Origin: a virus | Direction: 5' to 3' (one strand) | DNA length: 64,000 bases | Virus record (IMG/VR): IMGVR_UViG_3300012943_000031 | Span: 1-64,000 of that record | In this document: in pieces, positions 3,542 through 55,125 of the stretch | Layout: each line of letters opens with the position of its first letter | Numbering within the stretch: position 1 is the first letter of the stretch | Notes under the pieces: generated by a model | What the model was told of the DNA's origin: nothing | What the model saw: the letters and a program-made list of their open reading frames with translations, nothing else | Databases searched by the model: none | Translations under genes and position numbers: made by a program

Positions 3542-4270
3542 CTATTTTATGAGTTGTTTAGCACGTGCCTGATGCACATACGAAGGGAACTCAGTTAACA
3601 ATAGTTTATACAGTTCATCATCTGTCTTCTGATCTAAATCATTGACAGAGAAGAAGTTGGCATTATCAATGTTCCTTCCCTGCATGTTATCCAGTTTTTC
3701 AAGGAAGTCAAATCCGGCACGTCCAATACCAACGAACTGGAAGAATATACCTGCATTGGAAGCTTCTTTAACAGCTTCTTCTACACCACTTCTGTTACTC
3801 GTATCACCATCAGTGATAAAAATAACATATACAGGAACATCCATTGTTTTATAGCCACCCAGTCCCAGTAGACCTTTCTTTTCAGCAAAGTCTTTTGTAA
3901 TGGCTTTGATAACAGGAGCATAATCTGTCCCACCCATGCTATATTTGCCAATTACTTTGCTATTAATATAGCCGGGAATGTTGCTGACAGTTAATGCTTC
4001 AGGGAGTTTCTTTACCCCATCGTCGAACAGGTAGAAGTCTACCTCACCATTGTCATCGAAAGCCATACCAATAGGTAATAATCTTTCAACTAAGGTTTGA
4101 ATTTTACCAGATGAATACATCATTGACATACTTCCTGAGAAGTCTAATGCCAATACAACTTGGGCTTTCTGGTGATTTAAGCCCAAGTCTTTACGCAAAT
4201 CCAAGACCTTCTTTTTTCTGAGGTCAAGCTGCTCTACAAGTGTAGGAGCAGGAGTTGTTGTTCCACCCAT
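3542..4270 (-). CDS. vWA domain protein, TerF C-terminal type
   Basis: VVLALDFSGSM, FDDNGEVD, GGTDYAP, FITDG, FFQFVGIG and FLEKLD...RNIDNANFF motifs. Confidence 0.9.
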   Translation of the reverse strand: MGGTTTPAPTLVEQLDLRKKKVLDLRKDLGLNHQKAQVVLALDFSGSMSMMYSSGKIQTLVERLLPIGMAFDDNGEVDFYLFDDGVKKLPEALTVSNIPGYINSKVIGKYSMGGTDYAPVIKAITKDFAEKKGLLGLGGYKTMDVPVYVIFITDGDTSNRSGVEEAVKEASNAGIFFQFVGIGRAGFDFLEKLDNMQGRNIDNANFFSVNDLDQKTDDELYKLLLTEFPSYVHQARAKQLIK

Positions 4271-4437
4271 AATTAGTGTTTTTTAAGATTAGAGGAGTTT
4301 GTTTTGTTACCATTTACTACTACCGGGAGACCTGTAATTTCTCTTTTCCTTTCTGGGAAGTGCTCTCCACTGAGAAGGTTTGAATGATCTAACACACGGT
4401 AAATCAAGCATATAGCTTGGGATGTGTATTTTAATTA

Positions 4438-5277: not shown

Positions 5278-5969
5278 AACAAATCTTTGATTGTGTAATG
5301 TGCCCCTGCTTGATGCTTGGGCTGATTAATAATCATGTAACCAAAACCATATTCATGTGCACCAGCACCATCATACAGTTCACTATCACCTACATGCATG
5401 ACATCTTCTATGTCGTATGGCAGTTTGTCATCAACTGCTCTGAAACATTCTCTATGAGGTTTAGAGTATCCTAATTCGTCTGAATAGATACGAAATAGGA
5501 AATGATTCTTAATGCCCAGTGTTTCAAGAACCACATCGAGAGTTTTACCTCTTATAAATGAGGTGTTAGATAGGAGGGACATTGTTTTAGCTCTCATTTT
5601 CAGTTCCTGTAATACGTCTTTTGTGTCATTATCATATAAGGTAGGAGGATATTTAAGGAATAACTGTTCTAACTCCTTATATATCAATTCCATCTTAAGT
5701 GGTGTAAGGTTAGTTAACTTACCAGTCAATTTGAATAAAACCATAGCATACATCTCCAAGCAATTAGGAGCTTTTCCAAATAGTCTGGATACCTGATCGA
5801 AGTACTTCCAAGTCTCTTGAAAGGCTTCTTCTATCTCATCTCCATTTCTAAGTATCCCATGCTTGGTAAGAAGATATATGTGGAAATATCTCTTCCTTTG
5901 CTCCTTATACTCAGGATTTGGCCGGATAAGGGTATCCCATAAGTCGAATGAATAGTGTTTATGTTGCAT
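5274..5969 (-). CDS. HAD-superfamily hydrolase
   Basis: FDLWDTL (motif I), LLSNT, SKP and HVGDSELYDG motifs. Confidence 0.9.
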   Translation of the reverse strand: MQHKHYSFDLWDTLIRPNPEYKEQRKRYFHIYLLTKHGILRNGDEIEEAFQETWKYFDQVSRLFGKAPNCLEMYAMVLFKLTGKLTNLTPLKMELIYKELEQLFLKYPPTLYDNDTKDVLQELKMRAKTMSLLSNTSFIRGKTLDVVLETLGIKNHFLFRIYSDELGYSKPHRECFRAVDDKLPYDIEDVMHVGDSELYDGAGAHEYGFGYMIINQPKHQAGAHYTIKDLL

Positions 5970-6021: not shown

Positions 6022-6594
6022 TTACAGGTATGCCTGACGAAGGCTGTTGATGTCTCCATCTTTTCCTTCACCCAGTGCATTAAATTTCCATTCCCCATCT
6101 TTTTTGTAGAATTCCCCTACTAAGATTGCAGTTCTTGTACTGTAATCTTCATTCAGGTCATACTTAATGATGGATTGTGCAGGATTAGCCGGGTCAAATG
6201 CACGGCAGAATGCACCTTTTACTTGTCCAAAATTCTGTCCGGCCTGAGCATTATAGATGTTAACACCGATAACAACTTTTTCACACTCTGCTGGTAATTC
6301 ACCATGTGTAATAGTGATAACTTCATCATCACCATCACCAGCACCTGTTAAGTTGTCACCACTGTGCTTAACACCCGGTGAGCTTAAATGCCCAAAATAT
6401 ACAGGATTTGCACATTCCTTCCCCTGTGCATTCAACAAGAATGCAAATGCATCCAAGTCAAATGTAACTCCGGGTTGCAAATCCCATCCCAAACCAAATG
6501 CAAATGCAAGAAGTCCGGGGTTTGTTTTTGTCATGTCCACCTTTTGTCCCTTAACAAGGTTCAAAGTAGCTGGAGCTTGAGCTGTTGTACTCAT
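6022..6594 (-). CDS. terD: TerD family stress protein
   Basis: LVKGQKVD, GLGWD, FDLDA, HSGDNLTGAGDGDDE, QNFGQV and EWKFNALGEG motifs. Confidence 0.95.
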   Translation of the reverse strand: MSTTAQAPATLNLVKGQKVDMTKTNPGLLAFAFGLGWDLQPGVTFDLDAFAFLLNAQGKECANPVYFGHLSSPGVKHSGDNLTGAGDGDDEVITITHGELPAECEKVVIGVNIYNAQAGQNFGQVKGAFCRAFDPANPAQSIIKYDLNEDYSTRTAILVGEFYKKDGEWKFNALGEGKDGDINSLRQAYL

Positions 6595-6815: not shown

Positions 6816-6831
6816 ATAATATTATATTTAG

Positions 6832-6903
6832 TACTGAGTACGGGATTCGAACCCGTGTGCCTCCCGTGAAAGGGGAGTGAACTAACCACTATTCTAACTC
6901 AGC
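6832..6903 (-). tRNA. tRNA-Glu(TTC)
   Basis: Acceptor GCTGAGT/ACTCAGT, anticodon arm CTCCC-CTTTCAC-GGGAG, GGTTCGAATCC T-arm; no encoded CCA. Confidence 0.92.
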
Positions 6904-12532: not shown

Positions 12533-12546
12533 AATAATGTTTTTAG

Positions 12547-12620
12547 ACTTCACGACAGGATTCGAACCTGTGAACACTTGGTTTGCTGCCAAGGTGTTTG
12601 GGCCACTCACACACATGAAG
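12547..12620 (-). tRNA. tRNA-Cys(GCA), atypical A33
   Basis: Acceptor CTTCATG/CGTGAAG, U73, anticodon arm CTTGG-CAGCAAA-CCAAG, T-arm ACAGG-TTCGAAT-CCTGT. Confidence 0.8.
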
Positions 12621-46568: not shown

Positions 46569-47675
46569 ATGGCTTGTAACGAACAAAATCCATGCAATCA
46601 AGACCCATGCCCAGATTTATATGACAACTGTGGCTGTGTTAATCCAAATACGTTTGGATGTACTACCTATACAGGGACATCATTAGAATGTCTTGATATA
46701 GACAATGGTACAAATGGGGATGATGTATTGGGTAAAATTGAAGAGGCTGTATGTGACCTTCAGGAGAACAAAGGTAAAGTTCTTATTGATGGCACAGATA
46801 CATGTCCTGAATACCTATTTGATAAACTAGAAGAAGGTACTAATATCTCTTTCAATATCACTGGAACAGGATGTGATAGAAAATTAGTTATTAATGCAGT
46901 AGAAGGTGGTGAACCAGTAGATGTTAATGTAAAAATTACATCTAATGACACAACTTCTGGATACCTTGACCAAAAGATTCAGACAGGTACATACTTAACT
47001 AAATCTGTAGTTTCTCCTACAGCTAATGAAAAACTAAGATTAGACGTAAATGTAGCATCTTTAGTATCTGGAGATTCAGGTAACCAATTAACAATTGGAG
47101 GTGATGGTGGTCTTAAGACTTTATATACTGCACCTGATGGAAGTGAAACTAAGGTTATGCAGGGTACAGGAACTACTGTAACAGGTACTGGTACTGTAAG
47201 TGATCCTTACATAGTATCTACTAACCCGACTATCCAAGTAGCACGTCCATGTTTTGATGGAGTATGGAGAAACATAACATTGGCCCTAACAGGTAATGTG
47301 AATGTTGTTTATGCATCAGGAACACCTCAGTTCAGGTATCGTTTTGATGGTACTATTGAGTTTAGAGGTTCAATTACCTACACAGTTGATTTCGGAGCAT
47401 ACACTACTGCTAACAGAAAATACACCATCCCTATGGGAAGTATTGCTGTAACATGTGTAACTGCTGGTGAATTAATTGGCACAAAAGACTTAAAAGGAAT
47501 AAATTATATAGATGTACCACAGGCTGGTGCTGACCAATATACACAAATGTATGGATACATACTACGTATGTCAGCACAGAACTTAACTTTAGAGTTCCAG
47601 TCTTCGTTTATTAACAGTACATCAAAATCTATAGTGGTTAATTTGGAAGGAGCAGTAGTTCATCCAAATATATAA
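46569..47675 (+). CDS. Putative tail fibre protein
   Basis: Cys-rich N-terminus, repeated VxxxxxDTxxxYLxxK, VTGTGTVSDPY motif, beta-rich C-terminus. Confidence 0.6.
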   Translation: MACNEQNPCNQDPCPDLYDNCGCVNPNTFGCTTYTGTSLECLDIDNGTNGDDVLGKIEEAVCDLQENKGKVLIDGTDTCPEYLFDKLEEGTNISFNITGTGCDRKLVINAVEGGEPVDVNVKITSNDTTSGYLDQKIQTGTYLTKSVVSPTANEKLRLDVNVASLVSGDSGNQLTIGGDGGLKTLYTAPDGSETKVMQGTGTTVTGTGTVSDPYIVSTNPTIQVARPCFDGVWRNITLALTGNVNVVYASGTPQFRYRFDGTIEFRGSITYTVDFGAYTTANRKYTIPMGSIAVTCVTAGELIGTKDLKGINYIDVPQAGADQYTQMYGYILRMSAQNLTLEFQSSFINSTSKSIVVNLEGAVVHPNI

Positions 47676-47720
47676 TAACTATTGAAAACCTCGGTTGTTG
47701 GTTCTCCGAGAACAGTTTAT

Positions 47721-47744
47721 AGGGCCATCTCTATGGCCCTTTTT
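47721..47744 (+). terminator. Intrinsic terminator insulating the tRNA island
   Basis: AGGGCCAT-ctct-ATGGCCCT-TTTT. Confidence 0.75.
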
Positions 47745-47852
47745 ATCTGGCACAATTTTTGAACATTATAAATATAAAAGCTATGACAATCTTAAAAGGT
47801 GGAGGATGTGGATGTGGTGGAAAAAAATAATTTCCCATTTTCACAAAATAAA

Positions 47853-47884
47853 TTTGGAATTTGCCAAATTACTTCGTATATTTG
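47853..47884 (+). promoter_or_regulatory. Promoter of tRNA operon 1
   Basis: TTTG-N20-TATATTTG. Confidence 0.85.
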
Positions 47885-47888
47885 CATT

Positions 47889-47978
47889 ATGAATTTACAT
47901 CGTACACATACATGGTTTACTACTTGTCCCCAATGTCCATTTGGAGGAGAAGGGTGTTGTATGTGTGAAAATAAATAA
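47889..47978 (+). CDS. Leader peptide 1 (attenuator), MNLHRTHTWFTTCPQCPFGGEGCCMCENK
   Basis: ATG 4 nt after the -7 box. Codons 4-18 use only H,R,T,W,F,C,P,Q, the amino acids of the downstream tRNAs. Confidence 0.8.
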   Translation: MNLHRTHTWFTTCPQCPFGGEGCCMCENK

Positions 47979-48039
47979 GTTTTTTCTTATTCATACTTAA
48001 AAACCCTTCAGTAATCCAATCACAACTGAAGGGTTTTTT
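47904..48039 (+). terminator. Attenuator 1 (1:2, 2:3 antiterminator, 3:4 terminator)
   Basis: 1:2 ACACATACA 47904-12 / TGTATGTGT 47958-66. 2:3 GAAGGGT 47949-55 / ACCCTTC 48003-09, plus GTATG/CATAC and AATAAG/CTTATT. 3:4 AAACCCTTCAGT / ACTGAAGGGTTT with U-tract. Confidence 0.8.
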
Positions 48040-48047
48040 CTTTTTAT

Positions 48048-48123
48048 CGGGTAGTGGGAGAATGGTTAGTCCACTATGTTTGGGGCATAGAAAATGTCAG
48101 TTCGAGTCTGATCTACCCGACCA
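48048..48123 (+). tRNA. tRNA-Pro(TGG)
   Basis: Cloverleaf, anticodon arm CTATG-TTTGGGG-CATAG, CCA encoded. Confidence 0.92.
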
Positions 48124-48129
48124 AATAAT

Positions 48130-48205
48130 GCCAGTGTAGCACAACAGGTAGTGCAGTACTCTTGTAAAGTAAAGGTTGCAAGTTCGATTCTTGTCACTGG
48201 CTCCA
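48130..48205 (+). tRNA. tRNA-Thr(TGT)
   Basis: Loop CTTGTAA, CCA encoded. Confidence 0.92.
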
Positions 48206-48213
48206 AATTATAT

Positions 48214-48287
48214 GGCCGTATAGCCAAGTGGTAAGGCACATGTCTGCAAAACTTTGATCCCCAGTTCGAATCTGGGTACGGCTTCCA
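48214..48287 (+). tRNA. tRNA-Cys(GCA)
   Basis: Loop CTGCAAA, U73, CCA encoded. Confidence 0.92.
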
Positions 48288-48290
48288 TAT

Positions 48291-48365
48291 GGTGCACTAA
48301 CTCAATGGTAGAGTTCCTCCCTGAAAAGGAGGGTGTTCCCAGTTCAAGTCTGGGGTGTACCACCA
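48291..48365 (+). tRNA. tRNA-Phe(GAA)
   Basis: Loop CTGAAAA, CCA encoded. Confidence 0.92.
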
Positions 48366-48368
48366 CAT

Positions 48369-48439
48369 ACGGGTATGGTGAAATGGTATCATAACAGTCT
48401 CCAAAACTGCTGTTCAGGGTTCGAATCCTTGTACCCGTG
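48369..48439 (+). tRNA. tRNA-Trp(CCA)
   Basis: Loop CTCCAAA, G73. Confidence 0.9.
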
Positions 48440-48491
48440 CTTTTTCTTATTCCCACATTTCCCTGAGAAATCAAACTTGTGGGTTTCGTAT

Positions 48492-48565
48492 TGTCTCATG
48501 GTGTAATGGCAACATAAGAAGCTTTGACCTTCTTGTTTCAGGTTCGAGCCCTGATGGGACATCCA
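48492..48565 (+). tRNA. tRNA-Gln(TTG)
   Basis: AGAAG-CTTTGAC-CTTCT, CCA encoded. Confidence 0.9.
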
Positions 48566-48570
48566 AATAT

Positions 48571-48641
48571 TACCTTATAGTGTAATGGTAACACACCACT
48601 CTCTGAAAGTGTTGTTTAAGGTTCGAGTCCTTATAAGGTAA
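48571..48641 (+). tRNA. tRNA-Gln(CTG)
   Basis: Loop CTCTGAA. Confidence 0.9.
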
Positions 48642-48643
48642 CT

Positions 48644-48717
48644 GTGACTATAGCTTAATGGTTTAGAGCCCTTGGTTGTGACCCAAGGTAGTGTCAGTTC
48701 GAATCTGATTAGTCACC
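48644..48717 (+). tRNA. tRNA-His(GTG)
   Basis: CTTGG-TTGTGAC-CCAAG, C73; T rather than G at -1. Confidence 0.9.
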
Positions 48718-48722
48718 TAAAT

Positions 48723-48793
48723 GCCCTATTAGTATAATGGAAGTATCTGAGAATACGAATCTCAGGGTAGGAGTTCAAATCTTCTATAGGGTT
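48723..48793 (+). tRNA. tRNA-Arg(ACG)
   Basis: TGAGA-ATACGAA-TCTCA. Confidence 0.85.
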
Positions 48794-48820
48794 CTGGTAC
48801 ACTTCTTGCTATATGAAAGT

Positions 48821-48997
48821 ATGGTAATGAAAGGTAAAAATAAACTAGAAAGAATGGAATTACGTGCTGCTAAAAGATTTAACAGACGTTCTAAGAAAAT
48901 AAAATTCCATCTTACTAATGATTGGAGTTGGACATTTCCTATCCCTAAAGAGGGAATTCCAAAAATAGTTGAAGAAATATTTGGAAACGGCAAATAA
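48821..48997 (+). CDS. Small basic hypothetical protein
   Basis: MVMKGKNKLERMELRAAKRFNRR...; the longer start in the track overlaps tRNA-Arg. Confidence 0.5.
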   Translation: MVMKGKNKLERMELRAAKRFNRRSKKIKFHLTNDWSWTFPIPKEGIPKIVEEIFGNGK

Positions 48998-49011
48998 ATG
49001 TCGTATCTTTG
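48980..49011 (+). promoter_or_regulatory. Promoter of tRNA operon 2
   Basis: TTTG-N20-TATCTTTG. Confidence 0.85.
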
Positions 49012-49038
49012 TATTATAAAATTTAAAAGCAGCAAATA

Positions 49039-49113
49039 ATGTACTTAATAAATATGATAGTGGATAGAATTAATGGGGCAGAGAAATCTGGCTCTGGACT
49101 TCTATTGTCATAA
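49039..49113 (+). CDS. Leader peptide 2 (attenuator), MYLINMIVDRINGAEKSGSGLLLS
   Basis: Codons 4-16 give I,N,M,V,D,R,G,A,E,K, exactly the ten amino acids of the downstream tRNAs. Confidence 0.8.
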   Translation: MYLINMIVDRINGAEKSGSGLLLS

Positions 49114-49177
49114 TCATAGTACTGATTACCAATATTTTAGAAGCCCAGAGCCTACGAAAGTTAGCTCTGGGTTTTTT
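49053..49177 (+). terminator. Attenuator 2
   Basis: 1:2 TATGATAGTGGA / TCTATTGTCATA. 2:3 GGCTCTGGACTTCTA 49090-104 / TAGAAGCCCAGAGCC 49138-152 (14 of 15 pair). 3:4 AGCCCAGAGC / GCTCTGGGTT with U-tract. Confidence 0.85.
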
Positions 49178-49180
49178 AAT

Positions 49181-49253
49181 GCCCTTGTAGCAAACTGGTT
49201 GTAGGCAATAGTCTTTTAAACTATGGGGTCTGGTTCGATTCCAGACGGGGGTA
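49181..49253 (+). tRNA. tRNA-Lys(TTT)
   Basis: ATAGT-CTTTTAA-ACTAT. Confidence 0.88.
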
Positions 49254-49261
49254 CACAATAT

Positions 49262-49333
49262 GCAGGATTAATTCAATGGTAGAAATCCATCTTTACATGG
49301 TGGAAGCTGGGAGTTCGAGTCTCTCATCCTGTA
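49262..49333 (+). tRNA. tRNA-Val(TAC)
   Basis: CCATC-TTTACAT-GGTGG. Confidence 0.88.
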
Positions 49334-49339
49334 CAATAA

Positions 49340-49411
49340 CTCTCTATAGCACAATGGAAGTGTAACTGCCTTCTAAGCAGTTTGGTATAGGTTCGAATCC
49401 TATTAGAGAGT
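49340..49411 (+). tRNA. tRNA-Arg(TCT)
   Basis: ACTGC-CTTCTAA-GCAGT. Confidence 0.9.
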
Positions 49412-49456
49412 CAGGTCAGTTTTCCAATTCTGCGTGGAGTACAAAATTGGATATAT

Positions 49457-49528
49457 TCCTCATTAGCTCAATGGTAGAGCGCAAAGCTGTTAACTTTGGA
49501 GATTTAGGTTCGAGTCCTAAGTGGGGAG
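49457..49528 (+). tRNA. tRNA-Asn(GTT)
   Basis: CAAAG-CTGTTAA-CTTTG, G73. Confidence 0.92.
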
Positions 49529-49538
49529 CATAATTACA

Positions 49539-49613
49539 TGTAGGGTGGACTGGAGATGGTTCCAGCTTGGTCTCATAAGCCAAATGACAGGGGTTCGAAT
49601 CCCTTCCCTGCAT
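49539..49613 (+). tRNA. tRNA with CAT anticodon (Met; initiator vs elongator unresolved)
   Basis: TTGGT-CTCATAA-GCCAA. Confidence 0.85.
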
Positions 49614-49618
49614 CTATA

Positions 49619-49771
49619 CTGTAAGGTGGTGAAATAGGCAGACACATCCACTTGTCTCGTGGACACAGATAAAGAAATAGATTAGGTATAATGGGGTTGA
49701 CCACTAATGTTTAACTTATTGTGTATCTAATTGAATCTCTGTATGAGTGGTTCAAATCCCTCCCTTACAGC
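49619..49771 (+). ncRNA. tRNA-like RNA (GTC anticodon) with an ~80-nt hairpin variable arm
   Basis: Acceptor CTGTAAGG/CCTTACAG, D-arm GTG-AAATAGGCAGA-CAC, TCCAC-TTGTCTC-GTGGA, long hairpin 49664-49744, T-loop TTCAAAT. Confidence 0.7.
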
Positions 49772-49776
49772 AACAT

Positions 49777-49850
49777 TGCACATTAGCCAAGAGGTCTAAG
49801 GCATCACTCTCATAAGGTGACATTCATGAGTTCGAATCTCATATGTGCAA
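49777..49850 (+). tRNA. tRNA with CAT anticodon (Met or lysidine-Ile2)
   Basis: TCACT-CTCATAA-GGTGA, A73. Confidence 0.88.
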
Positions 49851-49879
49851 CATTTGATAATTTTCCTTATATTTGTAAA

Positions 49880-50347
49880 ATGGAAAAGTATTTCAGAACA
49901 GAGCAAGGAGAAAGAGTAAATATAGTTGAACACACTTTGGAACAAATCCAGAAGTGGCCCAACCTAGAGATTTACATAGCAACAGACTCTCAAGACCAAG
50001 GTGGAAAGAGTAGATATGCTACAGTAATTGTCTACAGATATGGGAAAAGAGGTGCTCACTATATATACTTTAGAGAAGACGTACCACGTTGTAAGGACAT
50101 GTATACTCGTCTATATGATGAGGCTGTTCGTACAATTGATACAGCACAGTTAATAGACAGTGAGATACCTGTTAAGTTTGCCGGGTTAGAGTTTGACTAC
50201 AATAACCTACCAAGACATAACAGTAACAAATTACTCTCTTCTGTAAGAGGATGGGTAACAGGATTAAATTACAATGCTGTCTTCAAAGGTGATGAATTAG
50301 TAGCTGCAAAAGCTGCTGACCATGTTTGTAGACACAAGAATATATAA
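49880..50347 (+). CDS. RNase H-like YkuK/DUF458 family protein
   Basis: IYIATDSQ...YATVIV...RLYDEAVRTI...DYN...AAKAAD motifs; ATG after TATATTTG. Confidence 0.8.
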   Translation: MEKYFRTEQGERVNIVEHTLEQIQKWPNLEIYIATDSQDQGGKSRYATVIVYRYGKRGAHYIYFREDVPRCKDMYTRLYDEAVRTIDTAQLIDSEIPVKFAGLEFDYNNLPRHNSNKLLSSVRGWVTGLNYNAVFKGDELVAAKAADHVCRHKNI

Positions 50348-50382
50348 GAGATGGATTGCAGCACTCTTTAAAATGCTGATTT

Positions 50383-50456
50383 GCAGAGGTAGTTAAATGG
50401 TATAATGCCTTCCTTCCAAGTAGGATTTGGGAGTTCGATTCTCCTCCTCTGCTCCA
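50383..50456 (+). tRNA. tRNA-Gly(TCC)
   Basis: Loop CTTCCAA, U73, CCA encoded. Confidence 0.92.
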
Positions 50457-50457
50457 T

Positions 50458-50529
50458 GCATTAGTAGCTCAATGGTAGAGTACTACCTTGCCAAGGTAGG
50501 AGTTGACAGTTCGAATCTGTTCTAGTGCT
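50458..50529 (+). tRNA. tRNA-Gly(GCC)
   Basis: CTACC-TTGCCAA-GGTAG. Confidence 0.92.
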
Positions 50530-50535
50530 CAATAA

Positions 50536-50609
50536 CATGCTGTCATCTAATGGCTTAGGATAACGGACTTTCAATTCGTTCATGTCGGGTTCAATTCCCA
50601 CCAGCATGA
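50536..50609 (+). tRNA. tRNA-Glu(TTC)
   Basis: ACGGA-CTTTCAA-TTCGT. Confidence 0.88.
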
Positions 50610-50632
50610 CTAACAACTAAAGTCGAAGGACA

Positions 50633-51031
50633 ATGAGTAAACAAAGTAACCAAAAGAAGACTGAACAATTGGGTATGCCAATTGGTACAGCAAGTAATAG
50701 ATTGAGGAAATCAATTATCTTTAATCTGTTAAAGAAAGCAAATGAGAATTTCTGTTTCCAATGTGGAGCAGAAATAGAATTAGAGAATGAATTATCAATA
50801 GAACATAAGACTCCATATCTGGATTCTGAAGACCCACAAGGTCTGTTCTTTGATTTAGATAATATAGCTTTTTCTCACCTGTCATGCAATGTAGGTGCTG
50901 CAAGACAGACTCATAGAGTAAAGAATCATGGCCTGACTCTCTACAAAGATGGTTGTAGATGTGGTATTTGTGTGACAGCACAAAAAGAATCTTGGTCAAA
51001 ATATGATAAGAAGAGAAGAGTAAAAACGTAG
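50633..51031 (+). CDS. HNH endonuclease (free-standing, homing-type)
   Basis: CFQCG...LSIEHKTP...NIAFSHLSCN and C-terminal GCRCGIC. Confidence 0.8.
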   Translation: MSKQSNQKKTEQLGMPIGTASNRLRKSIIFNLLKKANENFCFQCGAEIELENELSIEHKTPYLDSEDPQGLFFDLDNIAFSHLSCNVGAARQTHRVKNHGLTLYKDGCRCGICVTAQKESWSKYDKKRRVKT

Positions 51032-51103
51032 GTGTAGTGTAACGGTTTAGCATATCTGCCTGTCACGCAGACGGTAGGAGTTCGAATCTCCCATCTACGG
51101 CCA
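51027..51103 (+). tRNA. tRNA-Asp(GTC), apparent 8/4 fold
   Basis: CGTAGGTG/CATCTACG 8-bp acceptor plus G-CCA, 4-bp T-stem GGAG/CTCC, anticodon arm TCTGC-CTGTCAC-GCAGA. Confidence 0.88.
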
Positions 51104-51105
51104 AT

Positions 51106-51178
51106 GTTGTTGTAGCTTAATGGTTAAAGCTCATGTCTTATACACATGTGAGTGAGAGTTCGAGTCTCTCCAACAACA
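51106..51178 (+). tRNA. tRNA-Ile(TAT)
   Basis: CATGT-CTTATAC-ACATG. Confidence 0.88.
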
Positions 51179-51187
51179 CACAAATAT

Positions 51188-51262
51188 GTTGATATAGCTC
51201 AATGGTGGAGCACTTGTCTGATACACAAGAGGATGAAGGTTCGAGTCCCTCTATCAACACCA
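51188..51262 (+). tRNA. tRNA-Ile(GAT)
   Basis: CTTGT-CTGATAC-ACAAG, CCA encoded. Confidence 0.92.
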
Positions 51263-51265
51263 TAT

Positions 51266-51338
51266 GGGGGTGAAGTTCTAGTGGATGAACACCTGTCTTG
51301 CACACAGGAAGTTGTGGATTCGAGTTTCACCACCTCCA
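51266..51338 (+). tRNA. tRNA-Ala(TGC)
   Basis: G3.U70 pair, CCTGT-CTTGCAC-ACAGG. Confidence 0.9.
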
Positions 51339-51341
51339 CAT

Positions 51342-51372
51342 AACCTACTGATAATCAGTCAGTAGGTTTTTT
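51342..51372 (+). terminator. Terminator ending tRNA operon 2
   Basis: AACCTACTGA-taatcag-TCAGTAGGTT-TTTT. Confidence 0.8.
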
Positions 51373-51409
51373 ATTTGGTAAACTGGCAGGATTTTTGTAC
51401 CTTTATAGT

Positions 51410-51883
51410 ATGATAACAGCAATAGTTATGCTCAGTATAGCACTTATAGTGGCAATTCTTCTTCTCCTTAGAAAGGAGGAATGTGAAGAGTCAGGATATA
51501 TTGAAATATCATTTATTATTAATAATACAAAAATAACAGGAAAAAACATGGCATTAACAGCATTCCCACAACAAAAAACACCTTTCATTCTACAGCCGGT
51601 AGATAGAAAAGGTAATCCAGCACAAGTTGAAGCTGGAACAGTAGTTTTCACAGTAGATGATCCATCAATTGCAGAAGTTCAGGTAGACCCAACAAATGAG
51701 TTGGCAGGTACTATCATAACTAAAGCAGTAGGTGTAACACAGATTAATTATTCTGCTGATGCTGACTTAGGAGAAGGTGTAACAACTATTTCAGGTTTTG
51801 ACGCAATTGAAGTTAAAGCTGAACAAGCAGTTGGATTTGGTATCACTTTTGGCCCATCAGAGGACATAGAGGAAACACCTTAA
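51410..51883 (+). CDS. Membrane-anchored Ig-like (Big-2-like) protein
   Basis: TTTG-N20-TACCTTTA promoter, N-terminal TM, FTVDDPSIAEV...ITKAVGVTQI pattern; an alternative ATG lies at 51548. Confidence 0.6.
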   Translation: MITAIVMLSIALIVAILLLLRKEECEESGYIEISFIINNTKITGKNMALTAFPQQKTPFILQPVDRKGNPAQVEAGTVVFTVDDPSIAEVQVDPTNELAGTIITKAVGVTQINYSADADLGEGVTTISGFDAIEVKAEQAVGFGITFGPSEDIEETP

Positions 51884-51891
51884 AAGAAAAA

Positions 51892-51923
51892 TTTGGAATT
51901 TTATTCTCAGTACCGTATATTTG
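51892..51923 (+). promoter_or_regulatory. Promoter of the suppressor tRNA / Pth2 unit
   Basis: TTTG-N20-TATATTTG, overlapped by a 12-bp inverted repeat (51908-51941). Confidence 0.8.
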
Positions 51924-51934
51924 TGAAAGTATAC

Positions 51935-52006
51935 GGTACTGTAGTTTAATGGCAAAACAGCAGTCTCTAAAACTGAATAGTGTGGGTTCGATCCCCATCA
52001 GTACCA
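51935..52006 (+). tRNA. Amber suppressor tRNA (CTA anticodon)
   Basis: Acceptor GGTACTG/CAGTACC, A73, CAGT-CTCTAAA-ACTG, GTGGG-TTCGATC-CCCAT. Confidence 0.88.
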
Positions 52007-52023
52007 CAATTAAACCAAATACA

Positions 52024-52500
52024 ATGAGTAAGTAGATGGAAATCCAGAAACTGGTAACTGTGACCAGAACTGACTTACCTGAAGGTTATCAGGCAGTACA
52101 GTCAACACATGCAGCAATTGATTTTGTTTTTGAACATCCTACACGTGCTGGCCCTTGGCATAAAAACAGTAATACGTTAGTGATGTTAACAGTAAAGGAC
52201 ACGAAAGGTCTCCTTCACCTAATGAGGAAGTGTGATTATCTGTCTATAGCTTATACTGTTTTCAGGGAACCAGATATTGGTAACCAAATCACAGCCATCT
52301 GTATGGAGCCTCATGAGGAGGTTTACAAGATGGTTAGTAAGCTACCTTTATTAATACCAAAAACACAATCAAATGAATACCAAGACACTATCAATCAAAG
52401 CCAAGTTAGCCAACCAAGTGAGAACAATCTTCTACAAGAAGTGGGATGTGACGAAAATCACAGAACACGAACAGAAGAGGATGTTGAGAGAGTTAGCTGA
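52024..52500 (+). CDS. Pth2-family peptidyl-tRNA hydrolase-like protein, with in-frame TAG at codon 4
   Basis: KLVTVTRTDLPEGYQAVQSTHA...LVMLTV...FREPDIGNQITAI fits the PTH2 pattern. ATG AGT AAG TAG ATG at 52024-52038, with the A-rich leader before the first ATG. Confidence 0.75.
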
Positions 52501-52648
52501 GTTAACTAAAGAAGTTCACTATGAGTTAAATCTCTACAAGGGTAAGAGAAGAGATAAGAAAATACTCTTAGAAAAGAGGTTAGAAGCCCCTCAAACAAAG
52601 ACCATGAAGAAGAAACTGAAAGGTCACAGAAAAGAAATTTCAAAATAA
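52373..52648 (+). CDS. Basic hypothetical protein
   Basis: ORF track; AAAAACACAATCAA leader. Confidence 0.55.
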   Translation: MNTKTLSIKAKLANQVRTIFYKKWDVTKITEHEQKRMLRELAELTKEVHYELNLYKGKRRDKKILLEKRLEAPQTKTMKKKLKGHRKEISK

Positions 52649-52649
52649 A

Positions 52650-52681
52650 TTTGGAAATCGTGAAAAAAGGTTGTATATTTG
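52650..52681 (+). promoter_or_regulatory. Promoter of tRNA operon 3
   Basis: TTTG-N20-TATATTTG. Confidence 0.85.
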
Positions 52682-52685
52682 CAGT

Positions 52686-52733
52686 ATGAAAATAACATCA
52701 ACATATAGTTCCTTGTCGTTACTCTATAGCTAA
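52686..52733 (+). CDS. Leader peptide 3 (attenuator), MKITSTYSSLSLLYS
   Basis: Codons 7-15 are only Y,S,L, the amino acids of the downstream tRNAs; ATG 4 nt after the -7 box. Confidence 0.8.
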   Translation: MKITSTYSSLSLLYS

Positions 52734-52814
52734 TAGAGCCGGGAATACTATGTGTCAAAAATAACTATCTTGATTTTACATAACATGACCCGGTATTTCT
52801 ATACTGGGTTTTTT
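52702..52814 (+). terminator. Attenuator 3
   Basis: 1:2 CATATAGTTCC / GGAATACTATGTG with inner CTCTAT/ATAGAG. 2:3 CCGGG 52739-43 / CCCGG 52789-93, plus TATGTG/TACATA. 3:4 ACCCGGTAT-ttct-ATACTGGGT-TTTTT. Confidence 0.78.
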
Positions 52815-52821
52815 GTTTTAT

Positions 52822-52895
52822 GGCATTGTGATGGAACTGGGATACATACCTGTCTTAGAAACAGTTTTTTGTGGGTTCGAATCCCACCTTTGCCA
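52822..52895 (+). tRNA. tRNA-Leu(TAG), short variable region
   Basis: CTGT-CTTAGAA-ACAG; acceptor stem has two T.T mismatches. Confidence 0.8.
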
Positions 52896-52898
52896 CAT

Positions 52899-52977
52899 GC
52901 TCCTATGGTGGAACGGTATACACGTCAGACTTAAAATCTGATCTTAATTGATGAGAGTTCGAATCTCTCTAGGAGCA
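52899..52977 (+). tRNA. tRNA-Leu(TAA)
   Basis: TCAGA-CTTAAAA-TCTGA, A73. Confidence 0.9.
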
Positions 52978-52978
52978 C

Positions 52979-53204
52979 AACAACCATAAACTATCGAGTT
53001 ACAACTTGCTGGGTACTTACTGGGTACTTGCGGGGTGTAATTAGGAAACTCAGCACATCTCTGCTTAAAATGGGAGGACTAGCAATCCGTTATTACCAAA
53101 GAGGATGAAACTCAAACAGACTAAGAAGGTGAGCAGTTCTATGAAGTCGGGTTAGAGGATTAGACAAATGATAGTTGATACAGAAAGCTGGTTATTGGGT
53201 TGTT
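52979..53204 (+). ncRNA. rnpB: Minimal RNase P RNA (~226 nt)
   Basis: P1 AACAACC/GGTTGTT, P2 AACTATCG/TGATAGTT, CR-I AGGAAACTCAGC, TAGACAAATG, CR-V ACAGAAAGCTGGTTA; P4 AAC(T)CAGC/GCTGGTT with the bulged U. Confidence 0.82.
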
Positions 53205-53209
53205 AAATT

Positions 53210-53299
53210 GGTGGGCCCCAGATGACAGAGGTACTCCGTCTTGAAAACGGCTATAACGGTAATCATTCCGTTGTAAGGGTTGGACTCCCTTGCCCACCT
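53210..53299 (+). tRNA. tRNA-Ser(TGA), atypical D-arm and T-loop
   Basis: GGTGGGC/GCCCACC, CCGT-CTTGAAA-ACGG, long variable arm, T-loop TTGGACT. Confidence 0.78.
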
Positions 53300-53306
53300 C
53301 AAATAA

Positions 53307-53396
53307 GGAGAATAGACGAATATTGGTTTGTCGTAACTACCTGCTAAGTAGTTCTGTGTAACAGCAGTAAGAGTTCAATTCTCTTATTCTCCGCCA
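53307..53396 (+). tRNA. tRNA-Ser(GCT)
   Basis: ACTAC-CTGCTAA-GTAGT, variable arm, G73, CCA encoded. Confidence 0.9.
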
Positions 53397-53400
53397 ATAT

Positions 53401-53473
53401 GGGATAGACAGCAGGGCACTGTAGACGGTCTGTAAAACCGAACTATGTAGAGTTTCGAATACTCCCTATCCCA
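53401..53473 (+). tRNA. tRNA-Tyr(GTA), short variable region
   Basis: GGGATAG/CTATCCC, A73, CGGT-CTGTAAA-ACCG. Confidence 0.8.
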
Positions 53474-53512
53474 CATTAACTTTTCTTTAACAGAAAAAAG
53501 TCTTACCTTTGT

Positions 53513-53537
53513 AGCCTCCTTCGGGAGGTTATTTTTT
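53513..53537 (+). terminator. Terminator ending tRNA operon 3
   Basis: AGCCTCC-TTCG-GGAGGTT-ATTTTTT. Confidence 0.75.
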
Positions 53538-53823
53538 GCCACCCAGTTATGGTACTGAGGTAAACGCCTACACGAGGTAGGATAGTTCCTTACAGAAGTT
53601 GGATTGGTAGCCCTAAATAAGGGTGAGATTTTCTCCAATAGTGGCGCAATGTTTTGAGTAAGAGGTAGTTGGTATCCAAGGGATTGGTCATTTCTATGAC
53701 GTGTGAGGAGGATACTGGGGTAACAATGCACTGGCTATCTTCAAGTGAGAAACAGTAAGTTAAAAAATTCATAAGGGATTGGTGTGTCTAATTGATGGCA
53801 CATTAATTGATTACATATTAAGT

Positions 53824-55125
53824 ATGATTATAAACAACATAACACAGAAATTTTTAGACAATCCGGGATACCTGAAAAATGGTGCTGGATACTTAGCAGA
53901 ACAATGGAAATGTTCAAAGGACGAAATTTATGAGGCCAAATCACAAGCCAGACAAATAATGGCAATGACTGAGGCAATAGAAAGAGCTAATGATACAGCA
54001 AACAGTTTTGAAGTTCAGGTTAAATCAGAACCACTGAAGTATACTGGATCAGAAACTACTCCAGATGGAACTGTAAAGAAATACGAATCAGACAAACCTC
54101 TAACACCAAAAGAAATCGAAGAGTTAGCAGGAGTTGATGGGATAAATACATACGTAGCTAGAGTTTGGGATAAGTTACTACCAAATGGTAAATGGACATA
54201 CTCAATCGATATTAGATACAGAGTAAAAGATTTCTATGATAGAAAGGAGCTAAACAGTAAGTTACTGGAAATCATGTCTTCTGTAGAAAGAACACCATTC
54301 AATCCAATGTCTGTTCCAAAAGGATTTAACAATAGATGCTTAAACATTCTCCTAGCTGATGACCACGTAGGTGCAATCAACGTAACTAACTTGTTTGATA
54401 ATCCTCATGTCACCTATAGGGATAGACTGTTAATGATACTAGATGAAGTAGCAGATTTGGGACAGGAATTTGATGAGGTACATATCATCTCATTAGGTGA
54501 CCAACTAAATGGATGGAACTCTCAGACTACTAGAGGTGGTCATGAGGTAAAGAGTAAGAGCAATAAGGAACAGTTTGACGAGTATGTTGCTGCAAGAATG
54601 GAGTTCTATACTAACATATTTGAATCAGGAATATCTCAGAACTACTATGTACATGATGTGGAGAACAGTAATCACTCAGGTCTGGGAATGTCATATATGG
54701 CTAATCAGGCACTGAAGTTGTGGATAGATGCAAAATATCCTTGGGTAATCCAAGAATCCATAACTGACATGGTAGGTGGGTTCCAATATGGACAACATGT
54801 TGTTATGTTTGGACATGGTAAGGATGAGAAATTCCAGATCAGACCTATGCCAGCAGTACTAAATGACAAGACTGACTTGTTTTTATATGACTTAGCACAA
54901 AATAAAGGTTACTCACCATATAATGATTCAATCACTTTCTATAAGGGAGACTTACACCAGCATGGTTTACAGAATGGTAAGTTTGGTAGATATGTGAATG
55001 TACAATCATTGGCCGGTAATTCCGACTATGGTGACTTAAACTTTGGAAATACTAAAGGTGGGGCTCTACTTGAAATACTACAAAAAGATAGTTACAAGAT
55101 AACCTCACAAGCAATTTGGTTCTAA
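53824..55125 (+). CDS. Calcineurin-like metallophosphoesterase-fold protein
   Basis: LADDHVG, SLGDQLNG, NSNH, GHG and GDLH motifs; ATG at 53824. Confidence 0.75.
   Translation: MIINNITQKFLDNPGYLKNGAGYLAEQWKCSKDEIYEAKSQARQIMAMTEAIERANDTANSFEVQVKSEPLKYTGSETTPDGTVKKYESDKPLTPKEIEELAGVDGINTYVARVWDKLLPNGKWTYSIDIRYRVKDFYDRKELNSKLLEIMSSVERTPFNPMSVPKGFNNRCLNILLADDHVGAINVTNLFDNPHVTYRDRLLMILDEVADLGQEFDEVHIISLGDQLNGWNSQTTRGGHEVKSKSNKEQFDEYVAARMEFYTNIFESGISQNYYVHDVENSNHSGLGMSYMANQALKLWIDAKYPWVIQESITDMVGGFQYGQHVVMFGHGKDEKFQIRPMPAVLNDKTDLFLYDLAQNKGYSPYNDSITFYKGDLHQHGLQNGKFGRYVNVQSLAGNSDYGDLNFGNTKGGALLEILQKDSYKITSQAIWF

Follow-up and report, generated by a model that had tools for sequence, protein, structure and literature searches.

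A putative ten-amino-acid leader-peptide attenuator at the head of a viral transfer RNA operon

The DNA examined here (the window) comprises the initial 64 kb of IMGVR_UViG_3300012943_000031, a 106.8-kb IMG/VR virus contig whose completeness is estimated at ~72%. Between positions 48048 and 53474, it carries an island of transfer RNA (tRNA) genes as called by ARAGORN, all on one strand. The middle block of this island, operon 2, is headed by the subject of this report: a promoter, a short open reading frame (ORF) and a set of overlapping RNA structures that we refer to collectively as attenuator 2 (Table 1). Operon 2 spans 49181-51339 and includes 13 tRNA genes recognised by ARAGORN, in the order Lys(TTT), Val(TAC), Arg(TCT), Asn(GTT), Met, Met, Gly(TCC), Gly(GCC), Glu(TTC), Asp(GTC), Ile(TAT), Ile(GAT), Ala(TGC). 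An earlier interpretation made from the letters of the window (the sequence-only reading) had proposed a leader that gates a 14-gene operon. The operon stands, and the count does not, because 13 tRNAs are recognisable and what else lies in the block is one 162-nt tRNA-like element together with two protein ORFs, coding for an RNaseH-like protein and an HNH endonuclease.

Table 1. Positions of attenuator 2 and of the genes and signals of operon 2 in the window.
Feature	Position	Strand	Basis or remark
Predicted promoter P2: TTGGAA, 17 nt, TATCTTTG	48981-49011	+	motif
Leader ORF, 24 codons, product MYLINMIVDRINGAEKSGSGLLLS	ATG 49039 to TAA 49111-49113	+	sequence and ORF list
Regulatory run, 13 codons (INMIVDRINGAEK), ORF codons 4-16	49048-49086	+	codon content
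Segment 1: leader hairpin 5′ half, within regulatory codons	49053-49067	+	folding
Segment 2: antiterminator 5′ arm (49090-49104) and leader hairpin 3′ half (49099-49112)	49090-49112	+	folding
Segment 3: arm shared by antiterminator (with segment 2) and terminator (with segment 4)	49138-49152	+	folding
Intrinsic terminator: 13-pair stem (49139-49151 / 49164-49176), then TTTTTT	49139-49177	+	folding
tRNA genes Lys(TTT), Val(TAC), Arg(TCT), Asn(GTT), Met(CAT)	49181-49614	+	ARAGORN
tRNA-like 162-nt element	49615-49776	+	sits between both tRNA-Met genes
tRNA-Met(CAT), copy two	49777-49851	+	ARAGORN
Internal −7 box TATATTTG, 4 nt ahead of the ATG of the RNaseH-like ORF; −33 element degenerate	49868-49875	+	motif
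RNaseH-like ORF (PF04308 / DUF458, YkuK-like) within operon 2	49880-50347	+	Pfam E 7.4e-15
tRNA genes Gly(TCC), Gly(GCC), Glu(TTC)	50383-50610	+	ARAGORN
HNH endonuclease ORF	50633-51031	+	Pfam HNH
tRNA genes Asp(GTC), Ile(TAT), Ile(GAT), Ala(TGC)	51027-51339	+	ARAGORN
Operon-end terminator, strong	51342-51372	+	predicted

The feature that sets the leader ORF apart is the composition of its regulatory run, which reads ATA AAT ATG ATA GTG GAT AGA ATT AAT GGG GCA GAG AAA. These codons specify I, N, M, V, D, R, G, A, E and K, which are all ten of the amino acids served by operon 2 and no others, as the sequence-only reading had observed and as comparison with the ARAGORN tRNA set confirms. Its further claim that the codons match the tRNAs also holds, in that each codon is readable by some anticodon encoded in the operon. 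When all 127,924 windows of 13 codons in the six frames of the 64 kb were counted, only one was found to contain all of these ten residues and nothing else, namely the leader-2 run itself. Seven of its 13 codons are for the distal tRNAs (Gly, Glu, Asp, Ile, Ala), which is sensible only if read-through extends as far as those genes. The remainder of the peptide, a tail of G-S-G-L-L-L-S, is encoded by segment 2, and the predicted 5′ untranslated region of the leader is ~27 nt long.

The same correspondence between codons and tRNAs recurs at two other places in the island. Leader 1 (47889-47978) contains a 15-codon run, HRTHTWFTTCPQCPF, ahead of operon 1 with its tRNAs for Pro, Thr, Cys, Phe, Trp, Gln, Gln, His and Arg, whereas leader 3 (52686-52733) has a Ser/Leu/Tyr run, YSSLSLLYS, that matches its own tRNA block. 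By the six-frame count, each of these runs is likewise unique in the 64 kb for its own tRNA set. The Leu/Ser/Tyr set of operon 3 is completed by tRNA-Tyr(GTA) at 53401-53474, which ARAGORN misses by default and calls at a relaxed threshold. In both leaders 1 and 3, the ATG lies 4 nt past an TATATTTG box, and therefore their mRNAs may be leaderless.

The promoter assigned to attenuator 2 belongs to a small and specific class. The pattern TTGGWA-N17-TATNTTTG occurs at four sites in the 64 kb (47854, 48981, 51893 and 52651) compared with 0.03 expected, and all four head tRNA units, these being the three leader units and a tRNA gene with the anticodon CTA. A box of the P2 type also precedes leader 2 in related phages (see below). 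The P2 box resembles the −33 TTTG / −7 TAnnTTTG promoter consensus of Bacteroidota. P2 points into a terminator located ~160 nt on, just ahead of the tRNA genes, and such a layout, in which a promoter runs into a terminator close to the genes, is the hallmark of an attenuator. No terminator was found from tRNA-Arg(ACG) at 48794 to P2; operon 1 is therefore without a terminator of its own before attenuator 2, and transcripts from P1 would meet the same gate.

Folding of the full leader RNA (−47.2 kcal/mol, z −4.4) predicts the leader hairpin and the terminator. The leader hairpin (49053-49067 / 49099-49112) has a predicted energy of −20.6 kcal/mol (z ~ −3.6). The terminator is predicted at −22.4 kcal/mol (z −6.56), with a U tract that reaches 49177, and tRNA-Lys begins 4 nt on, at 49181. 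The sequence-only reading had proposed a 14-of-15-pair antiterminator that competes with this terminator. If the 3′ arm of the terminator is left out of the fold, 49090-49104 and 49138-49152 indeed form 14 pairs with one mismatch, at −25.9 kcal/mol (z −5.55), and the proposed competition is borne out, as both predicted helices use 49138-49152; the terminator itself we place at 49139-49177. The leader hairpin in turn sequesters the 5′ arm of the antiterminator. As predicted by folding, the layout is that of a classical four-segment attenuator.

To judge conservation, relatives were sought with the RNaseH-like ORF as the anchor (131 homologues at E ≤1e-10) for scans of metagenome and IMG/VR contigs, and approximately 30 loci with syntenic tRNA islands were found, designated below by L and a number. 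GenBank contributed a cultured phage, Leptolyngbya phage Lbo-JY46 (PP438436.1; L102), which carries the same system with three box-leader-terminator units at 1790-2090, 5350-5530 and 6080-6255, the leaders being unannotated in its record. Other routes were less productive. A megablast of 47800-51500 against GenBank phages gave no match, IMG/VR scans with the RNaseH-like or the Pth2-like protein singly yielded no useful relative, and a degenerate leader-1 DNA pattern retrieved no contig beyond one already known. A neighbouring 448-aa protein was also tried as an anchor and was set aside because the two loci that it gave, L004 and L005, are both without a tRNA island.

The leader-2 unit, consisting of the box, the ORF, the terminator and tRNA-Lys, is present in 19 distinct lineages, Lbo-JY46 included. 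Among these lineages, the residues of the run come in differing orders (INMIVDRINGAEK, IVVDNGMARGIEKDG, MIADNGDVRGIEKNG, NMIVDRMIGANEK, NIIGIVMEADRK, NIIAMVKGNIEDRN, IIVDNIGARGNEK, KNIAINMICKEVGRD). In 13 of the 19, the run nevertheless comprises the whole amino acid set of the operon-2 tRNAs and nothing else, after several tRNAs that had seemed absent from relatives were recovered by a relaxed threshold or by BLAST; Met alone is missing in four lineages, and a single Leu interrupts the run in two. Per-sequence folds place a strong terminator at the matching position in all 19. Equivalents of the leader hairpin reach z ≤ −3 in 14 of the 19, and its arms are conserved as DNA, hence little covariation can be counted there. 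Spacing is similarly maintained. The gap from the run to segment 2 is between −4 and +9 nt in 17 of the 19 lineages, 17-31 nt separate the stop codon from segment 3 downstream of it, and the distance from the end of the terminator to the first tRNA is 5-13 nt unless an ORF is inserted there.

A natural exchange of one tRNA gene between operons is particularly informative. In L016, L022/L091, L098 and Lbo-JY46, tRNA-Cys is located in operon 2, after Lys, and it is only in lineages with an operon-2 tRNA-Cys that a Cys codon appears in the leader-2 run (...NMICKEVGRD, ...NMICGNGRAKE, ...NAEGCKKA, ...IVCAEGVNKC); Lbo-JY46 has both the gene and the codon. The leader-1 runs of these same lineages (FQHTRFWFTPT and similar) are without the two Cys of THTWFTCPQCPF, whereas THTWFTCPQCPF with its two Cys is found in leader 1 of every lineage whose tRNA-Cys remains in operon 1. 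In L094, which has the same rearranged operon order, tRNA-Cys is nonetheless in operon 1, and Cys is found in leader 1 and not in leader 2.

Arginine offers a second comparison, being the sole amino acid with tRNAs in two of the operons: Arg(ACG) belongs to operon 1 and Arg(TCT) to operon 2. The leader-2 ORFs contain 25 Arg codons, every one of them AGR, whereas the leader-1 runs contain 15, each either CGT or CGC, and the four AGR codons that leader 1 does have are all in its tail. For reference, AGR makes up 65% of Arg codons in the long ORFs of the phage. Each leader-2 run moreover has ATA as well as ATY, which fits both Ile tRNAs. The split of the Arg codons and the pairing of ATA with ATY argue that tRNA species are sensed, not amino acids. 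No clear correlation was seen between the choice of Lys (AAA/AAG) or Gly (GGR/GGY) codons and the presence of a second isoacceptor.

The RNA elements of the leader also appear to change in concert. Terminator stems vary by lineage (CCCAGAGCC, CCCGGAGCC, CCTGAGGC, CCCCTGAGCC, CCCCAAGGC), and the tail of the ORF varies alongside. In 13 of 16 representative lineages, the duplex between the leader and its own terminator arm is predicted at −17 to −27 kcal/mol, and z is ≤ −3 relative to shuffles in 12 of them. Summed over true partners, the energy is −324; none of 100,000 random re-pairings of leaders with arms was as low, their mean being −222 and their minimum −288. An uncurated MAFFT alignment (A4) gives a concordant picture, with 72% of antiterminator cells paired at slide 0 compared with 54% and 61% when the partner is shifted by one column. 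In the same alignment, segments 2 and 3 contain 35 double-changed cells versus 19.1 +/- 3.2 after shuffling, and none of 500 shuffles scored as high. For the terminator pairs, the 3′ arm is out of register in A4, such that slide +1 equals slide 0, and per-sequence folds were used instead. As far as sequence comparison can establish it, then, the parts of attenuator 2 are in evidence and conserved, and they covary both among themselves and with the tRNA content.

Given these observations, we consider it likely that attenuator 2 is a ten-valent, ribosome-mediated leader-peptide transcription attenuator of the trp style that controls the phage tRNA operon 2. Four independent lines of comparative evidence support this interpretation, and the central proposal of the sequence-only reading, that the leader gates the operon, finds support in the specific promoter class, the conserved composition of the run, the tracking of Cys, the match to Arg isoacceptors, the covariation of the antiterminator, the leader hairpin and the spacing. 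The tRNAs of operon 2 would then probably be made only while ribosomes decode their codons slowly.

The proposed mechanism would begin with transcription from P2 and translation of the 24-codon leader as it emerges. If decoding is fast, the ribosome would reach the stop codon at 49111 and cover segment 2, segments 3 and 4 would pair, and transcription would terminate at 49177. Should the ribosome instead stall within the run for lack of any one charged tRNA, the leader hairpin would melt and leave segment 2 free to capture segment 3 before segment 4 exists, and the polymerase would proceed into the tRNA genes. In this manner, shortage of any single tRNA species could induce the entire block, and the newly made phage tRNAs would end the stall, which amounts to a demand-driven negative feedback in which the signal would be read per tRNA species and not per amino acid. 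We infer the translation of the leader, the switching itself and its physiological trigger from this arrangement of parts.

Several observations weigh against this reading, or at least against its simplest form. In nascent RNA that ends with segment 3, the antiterminator is already the lowest-energy fold even when no ribosome is present, and therefore the basal state may be read-through and not termination; termination probably needs either a ribosome at the stop codon over segment 2 or prior formation of the leader hairpin. The position of the last codons presents another difficulty. Codons 4-13 sit at least 13 nt ahead of 49090, and Ala14, Glu15 and Lys16 are at 12, 9 and 6 nt, respectively. 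A ribosome stalled at Glu15 or Lys16 (Ala14 being marginal) should therefore mask segment 2, and the sensing of Glu and Lys codons is unexplained by the simple model. The apical loop of the leader hairpin is formed by GAGAAA, the codons of these two residues. Upstream of the leader-2 ATG there is no Shine-Dalgarno sequence, only a kept A-rich context, ACAGCARAATG. Pairing of the antiterminator is weak in L016, L022 and L092. The 19 lineages are mutually related, and counts over them are not counts of independent events. In the case of the Cys exchange, the tree of the RNaseH-like protein (155 aa) is too poorly resolved to distinguish one move from two, and the move could have had a single origin. 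Finally, the internal box at 49868, which the sequence-only reading had flagged as a possible separate driver of the distal half, is present, its geometry matches that of leaders 1 and 3, and full promoters occupy this site in L003, L013, L010 and L014. Judging from these motifs, the distal tRNAs could be fed separately. In about half of the lineages, there is no promoter box before the distal tRNAs, which are therefore reachable there from the leader promoter only.

Other explanations for the same parts must also be weighed. The attenuator could operate as described and yet gauge general translation capacity or amino-acid supply, as would be altered by host shut-off, starvation or ribosome-targeting toxins. 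A run with ten amino acids would react to nearly any slowdown of elongation, and a tRNA array in Anabaena is induced by general translational stress (PMC8421152). We nevertheless judge this unlikely, because the division into AGR and CGY codons and the presence of both ATA and ATY follow the downstream isoacceptors, which sensing of amino acids or of capacity does not predict, and because the 20 amino acids are divided over the three leaders exactly like the tRNA genes. That the hairpin is instead a constitutive partial terminator, or a processing or stability element, that ends operon 1 and fixes the tRNA level while the small ORF senses nothing strikes us as very unlikely. P2 fires straight into this terminator, and such an element would leave unexplained the codon run, its tracking of tRNA content and the covarying antiterminator, even though transcripts from P1 would end here, there being no terminator between tRNA-Arg(ACG) and P2, and the weak antiterminators of three lineages would cause no difficulty.

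Two further possibilities concern the ORF itself. Its retention in 19 lineages and the recurrence of a GGCGCGGKK motif in some tails might be taken as signs of a functional micropeptide whose tRNA-matching composition is incidental. This we hold to be highly improbable, as the order of the run is rearranged among lineages while its composition is retained, the tail is constrained at the RNA level through pairing, and gain of Cys goes with the move of tRNA-Cys. It is hardly conceivable that the ORF arose by chance beside an ordinary terminator. AT-rich DNA is rich in short ORFs, but a run found once in 127,924 windows, the independent uniqueness of leaders 1 and 3, and the conservation and covariation in relatives all speak against coincidence.

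Leader-peptide attenuators are well known from enterobacteria, where they include trpL, hisL, pheL and leuL as well as the multivalent thrL (Thr/Ile) and ilvL of ilvGMEDA (Ile/Leu/Val). Attenuator 2 shares with them a promoter, a short ORF of regulatory codons, and four RNA segments whose alternative pairings give a leader hairpin, an antiterminator and a terminator followed by a U tract. It also has in common with them a stop codon placed such that a terminating ribosome masks segment 2, and regulated genes that supply the codon demand. In contrast to these systems, the phage leader targets tRNA genes and not biosynthetic enzymes, is borne by a phage, and lists ten (in some lineages eleven) amino acids with one to three codons each rather than one to three kinds of amino acid. 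Codon choice in the phage leaders, again unlike that in enterobacterial attenuators, follows the isoacceptor. To our knowledge, published cases of leader-peptide attenuation are confined to operons for amino-acid biosynthesis, a small number of synthetase genes and certain resistance genes.

There is also a resemblance to pheST, with its pheM leader, and to T-box riboswitches, since in each of these the state of the tRNA pool controls the supply of translation apparatus via conditional termination. T-boxes differ from leader 2 in that they bind uncharged tRNA directly, have no ORF and respond to one tRNA each, whereas the pheM leader differs in that it is concerned with Phe only and controls a synthetase. 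A cmscan search of 47000-54000 against Rfam (E up to 1) revealed no Trp, His, Leu, Thr or Phe leader and no T-box; the only matches were to tRNAs, weakly to Plastid-ycf2 on the reverse strand over tRNA genes, and weakly, in one instance, to RNase P RNA.

The nearest published case is the trn L-array of Anabaena sp. PCC 7120, in which 26 otherwise silent tRNA genes are induced under translational stress (PMC8421152). As in the phage system, extra tRNA genes are switched on when translation is impaired. The array is controlled by TrcR, a ribbon-helix-helix (RHH) repressor whose binding sites are direct repeats that cover the −10 box and start site (PMC10272220). Hence the Anabaena system uses a protein repressor at the promoter, is cellular and is not specific to tRNA species, unlike the phage system, and the 2021 report on it mentions neither attenuation nor a leader peptide nor a terminator (PMC8421152). 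Phage tRNA sets have been described as a counter to host defences that cleave tRNAs, with phage tRNAs replacing the depleted host tRNAs; the title and the opening of the abstract of that report make no reference to conditional leader-peptide control (PMC11555353). A full-text literature search returned no account of attenuation of tRNA genes, phage or cellular, and nothing on Lbo-JY46.

If our interpretation of attenuator 2 is correct, it represents a known kind of mechanism with a new class of target, tRNA genes, in a virus and with an unusually broad panel of isoacceptor-specific codons. A virus would be applying the logic of attenuation to tRNA genes themselves, by means of a ten-valent panel that discriminates isoacceptors. 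This would provide a mechanistic answer to the open question of when phages express their tRNA sets and why, and would constitute a natural codon-by-codon sensor of decoding speed as well as a compact, programmable part for synthetic biology. Given that Lbo-JY46 has been cultured, the hypothesis is directly testable. We also put forward, tentatively and with considerable doubt, that the three leaders of the island serve as an inducible counter-defence, functioning as multi-codon test strips for the loss of any host tRNA species. Such loss might be caused by an anticodon nuclease, by another tRNA-cleaving defence or by phage-driven shut-off of the host. Each leader would then turn on precisely the block of replacement tRNAs to which the missing species belongs, and the host pool would be sensed isoacceptor by isoacceptor.

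Some components of operon 2 lie outside this argument. The tRNA-like element between the two tRNA-Met genes has ends that pair as a tRNA acceptor stem, yet it includes ~80 nt of additional sequence. It goes uncalled by ARAGORN, also in a search that permits introns, and has no Rfam match. It is kept at 76-78% in L024 (2681-2814) and L022 (6039-6192). The RNaseH-like ORF is retained inside the tRNA operon in all relatives, and its homologues are nearly all on phage-like contigs with syntenic tRNA islands; its product may have a role in tRNA processing or repair. The HNH ORF, on the other hand, is missing from the matching site in L003, where Glu adjoins Asp, and is probably a mobile insert. HNH ORFs occur between tRNA genes at varying sites elsewhere, namely at 3684-4277 and 5173-5577 of L003 and upstream of tRNA-Pro in L010. 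With HNH ORFs inserted at such different sites, the tRNA island has the appearance of a homing-endonuclease hot spot.

Indications of the host diverge. The promoter type and distant matches to Cellulophaga phages suggest a Bacteroidota host, whereas the only cultured relative, Lbo-JY46, was reported on a cyanobacterium.

Several other features of the neighbourhood were noted. A Gly/Cys motif (GGxGCGCGGKK or GCGCGKPKP) recurs at 47783-47830, in the leader tails of L024, L097, L098 and L102, and in the leader-1 head of L090, either as a separate small ORF just ahead of P1 or as a leader fusion. Between operons 2 and 3, at 51893-52007, there is a tRNA with the anticodon CTA, of the amber suppressor type and labelled tRNA-Pyl by ARAGORN, which has its own promoter box and no leader, and it is followed by a Pth2-like ORF (PF01981) at 52036-52500. 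The weak Rfam match to RNase P RNA, at 53015-53194 between tRNA-Leu and tRNA-Ser, is to the archaeal form (19.9 bits, E 0.013). Far from the island, ARAGORN also calls two isolated tRNAs on the minus strand, Glu(TTC) at 6831-6903 and Cys(GCA) at 12546-12620.

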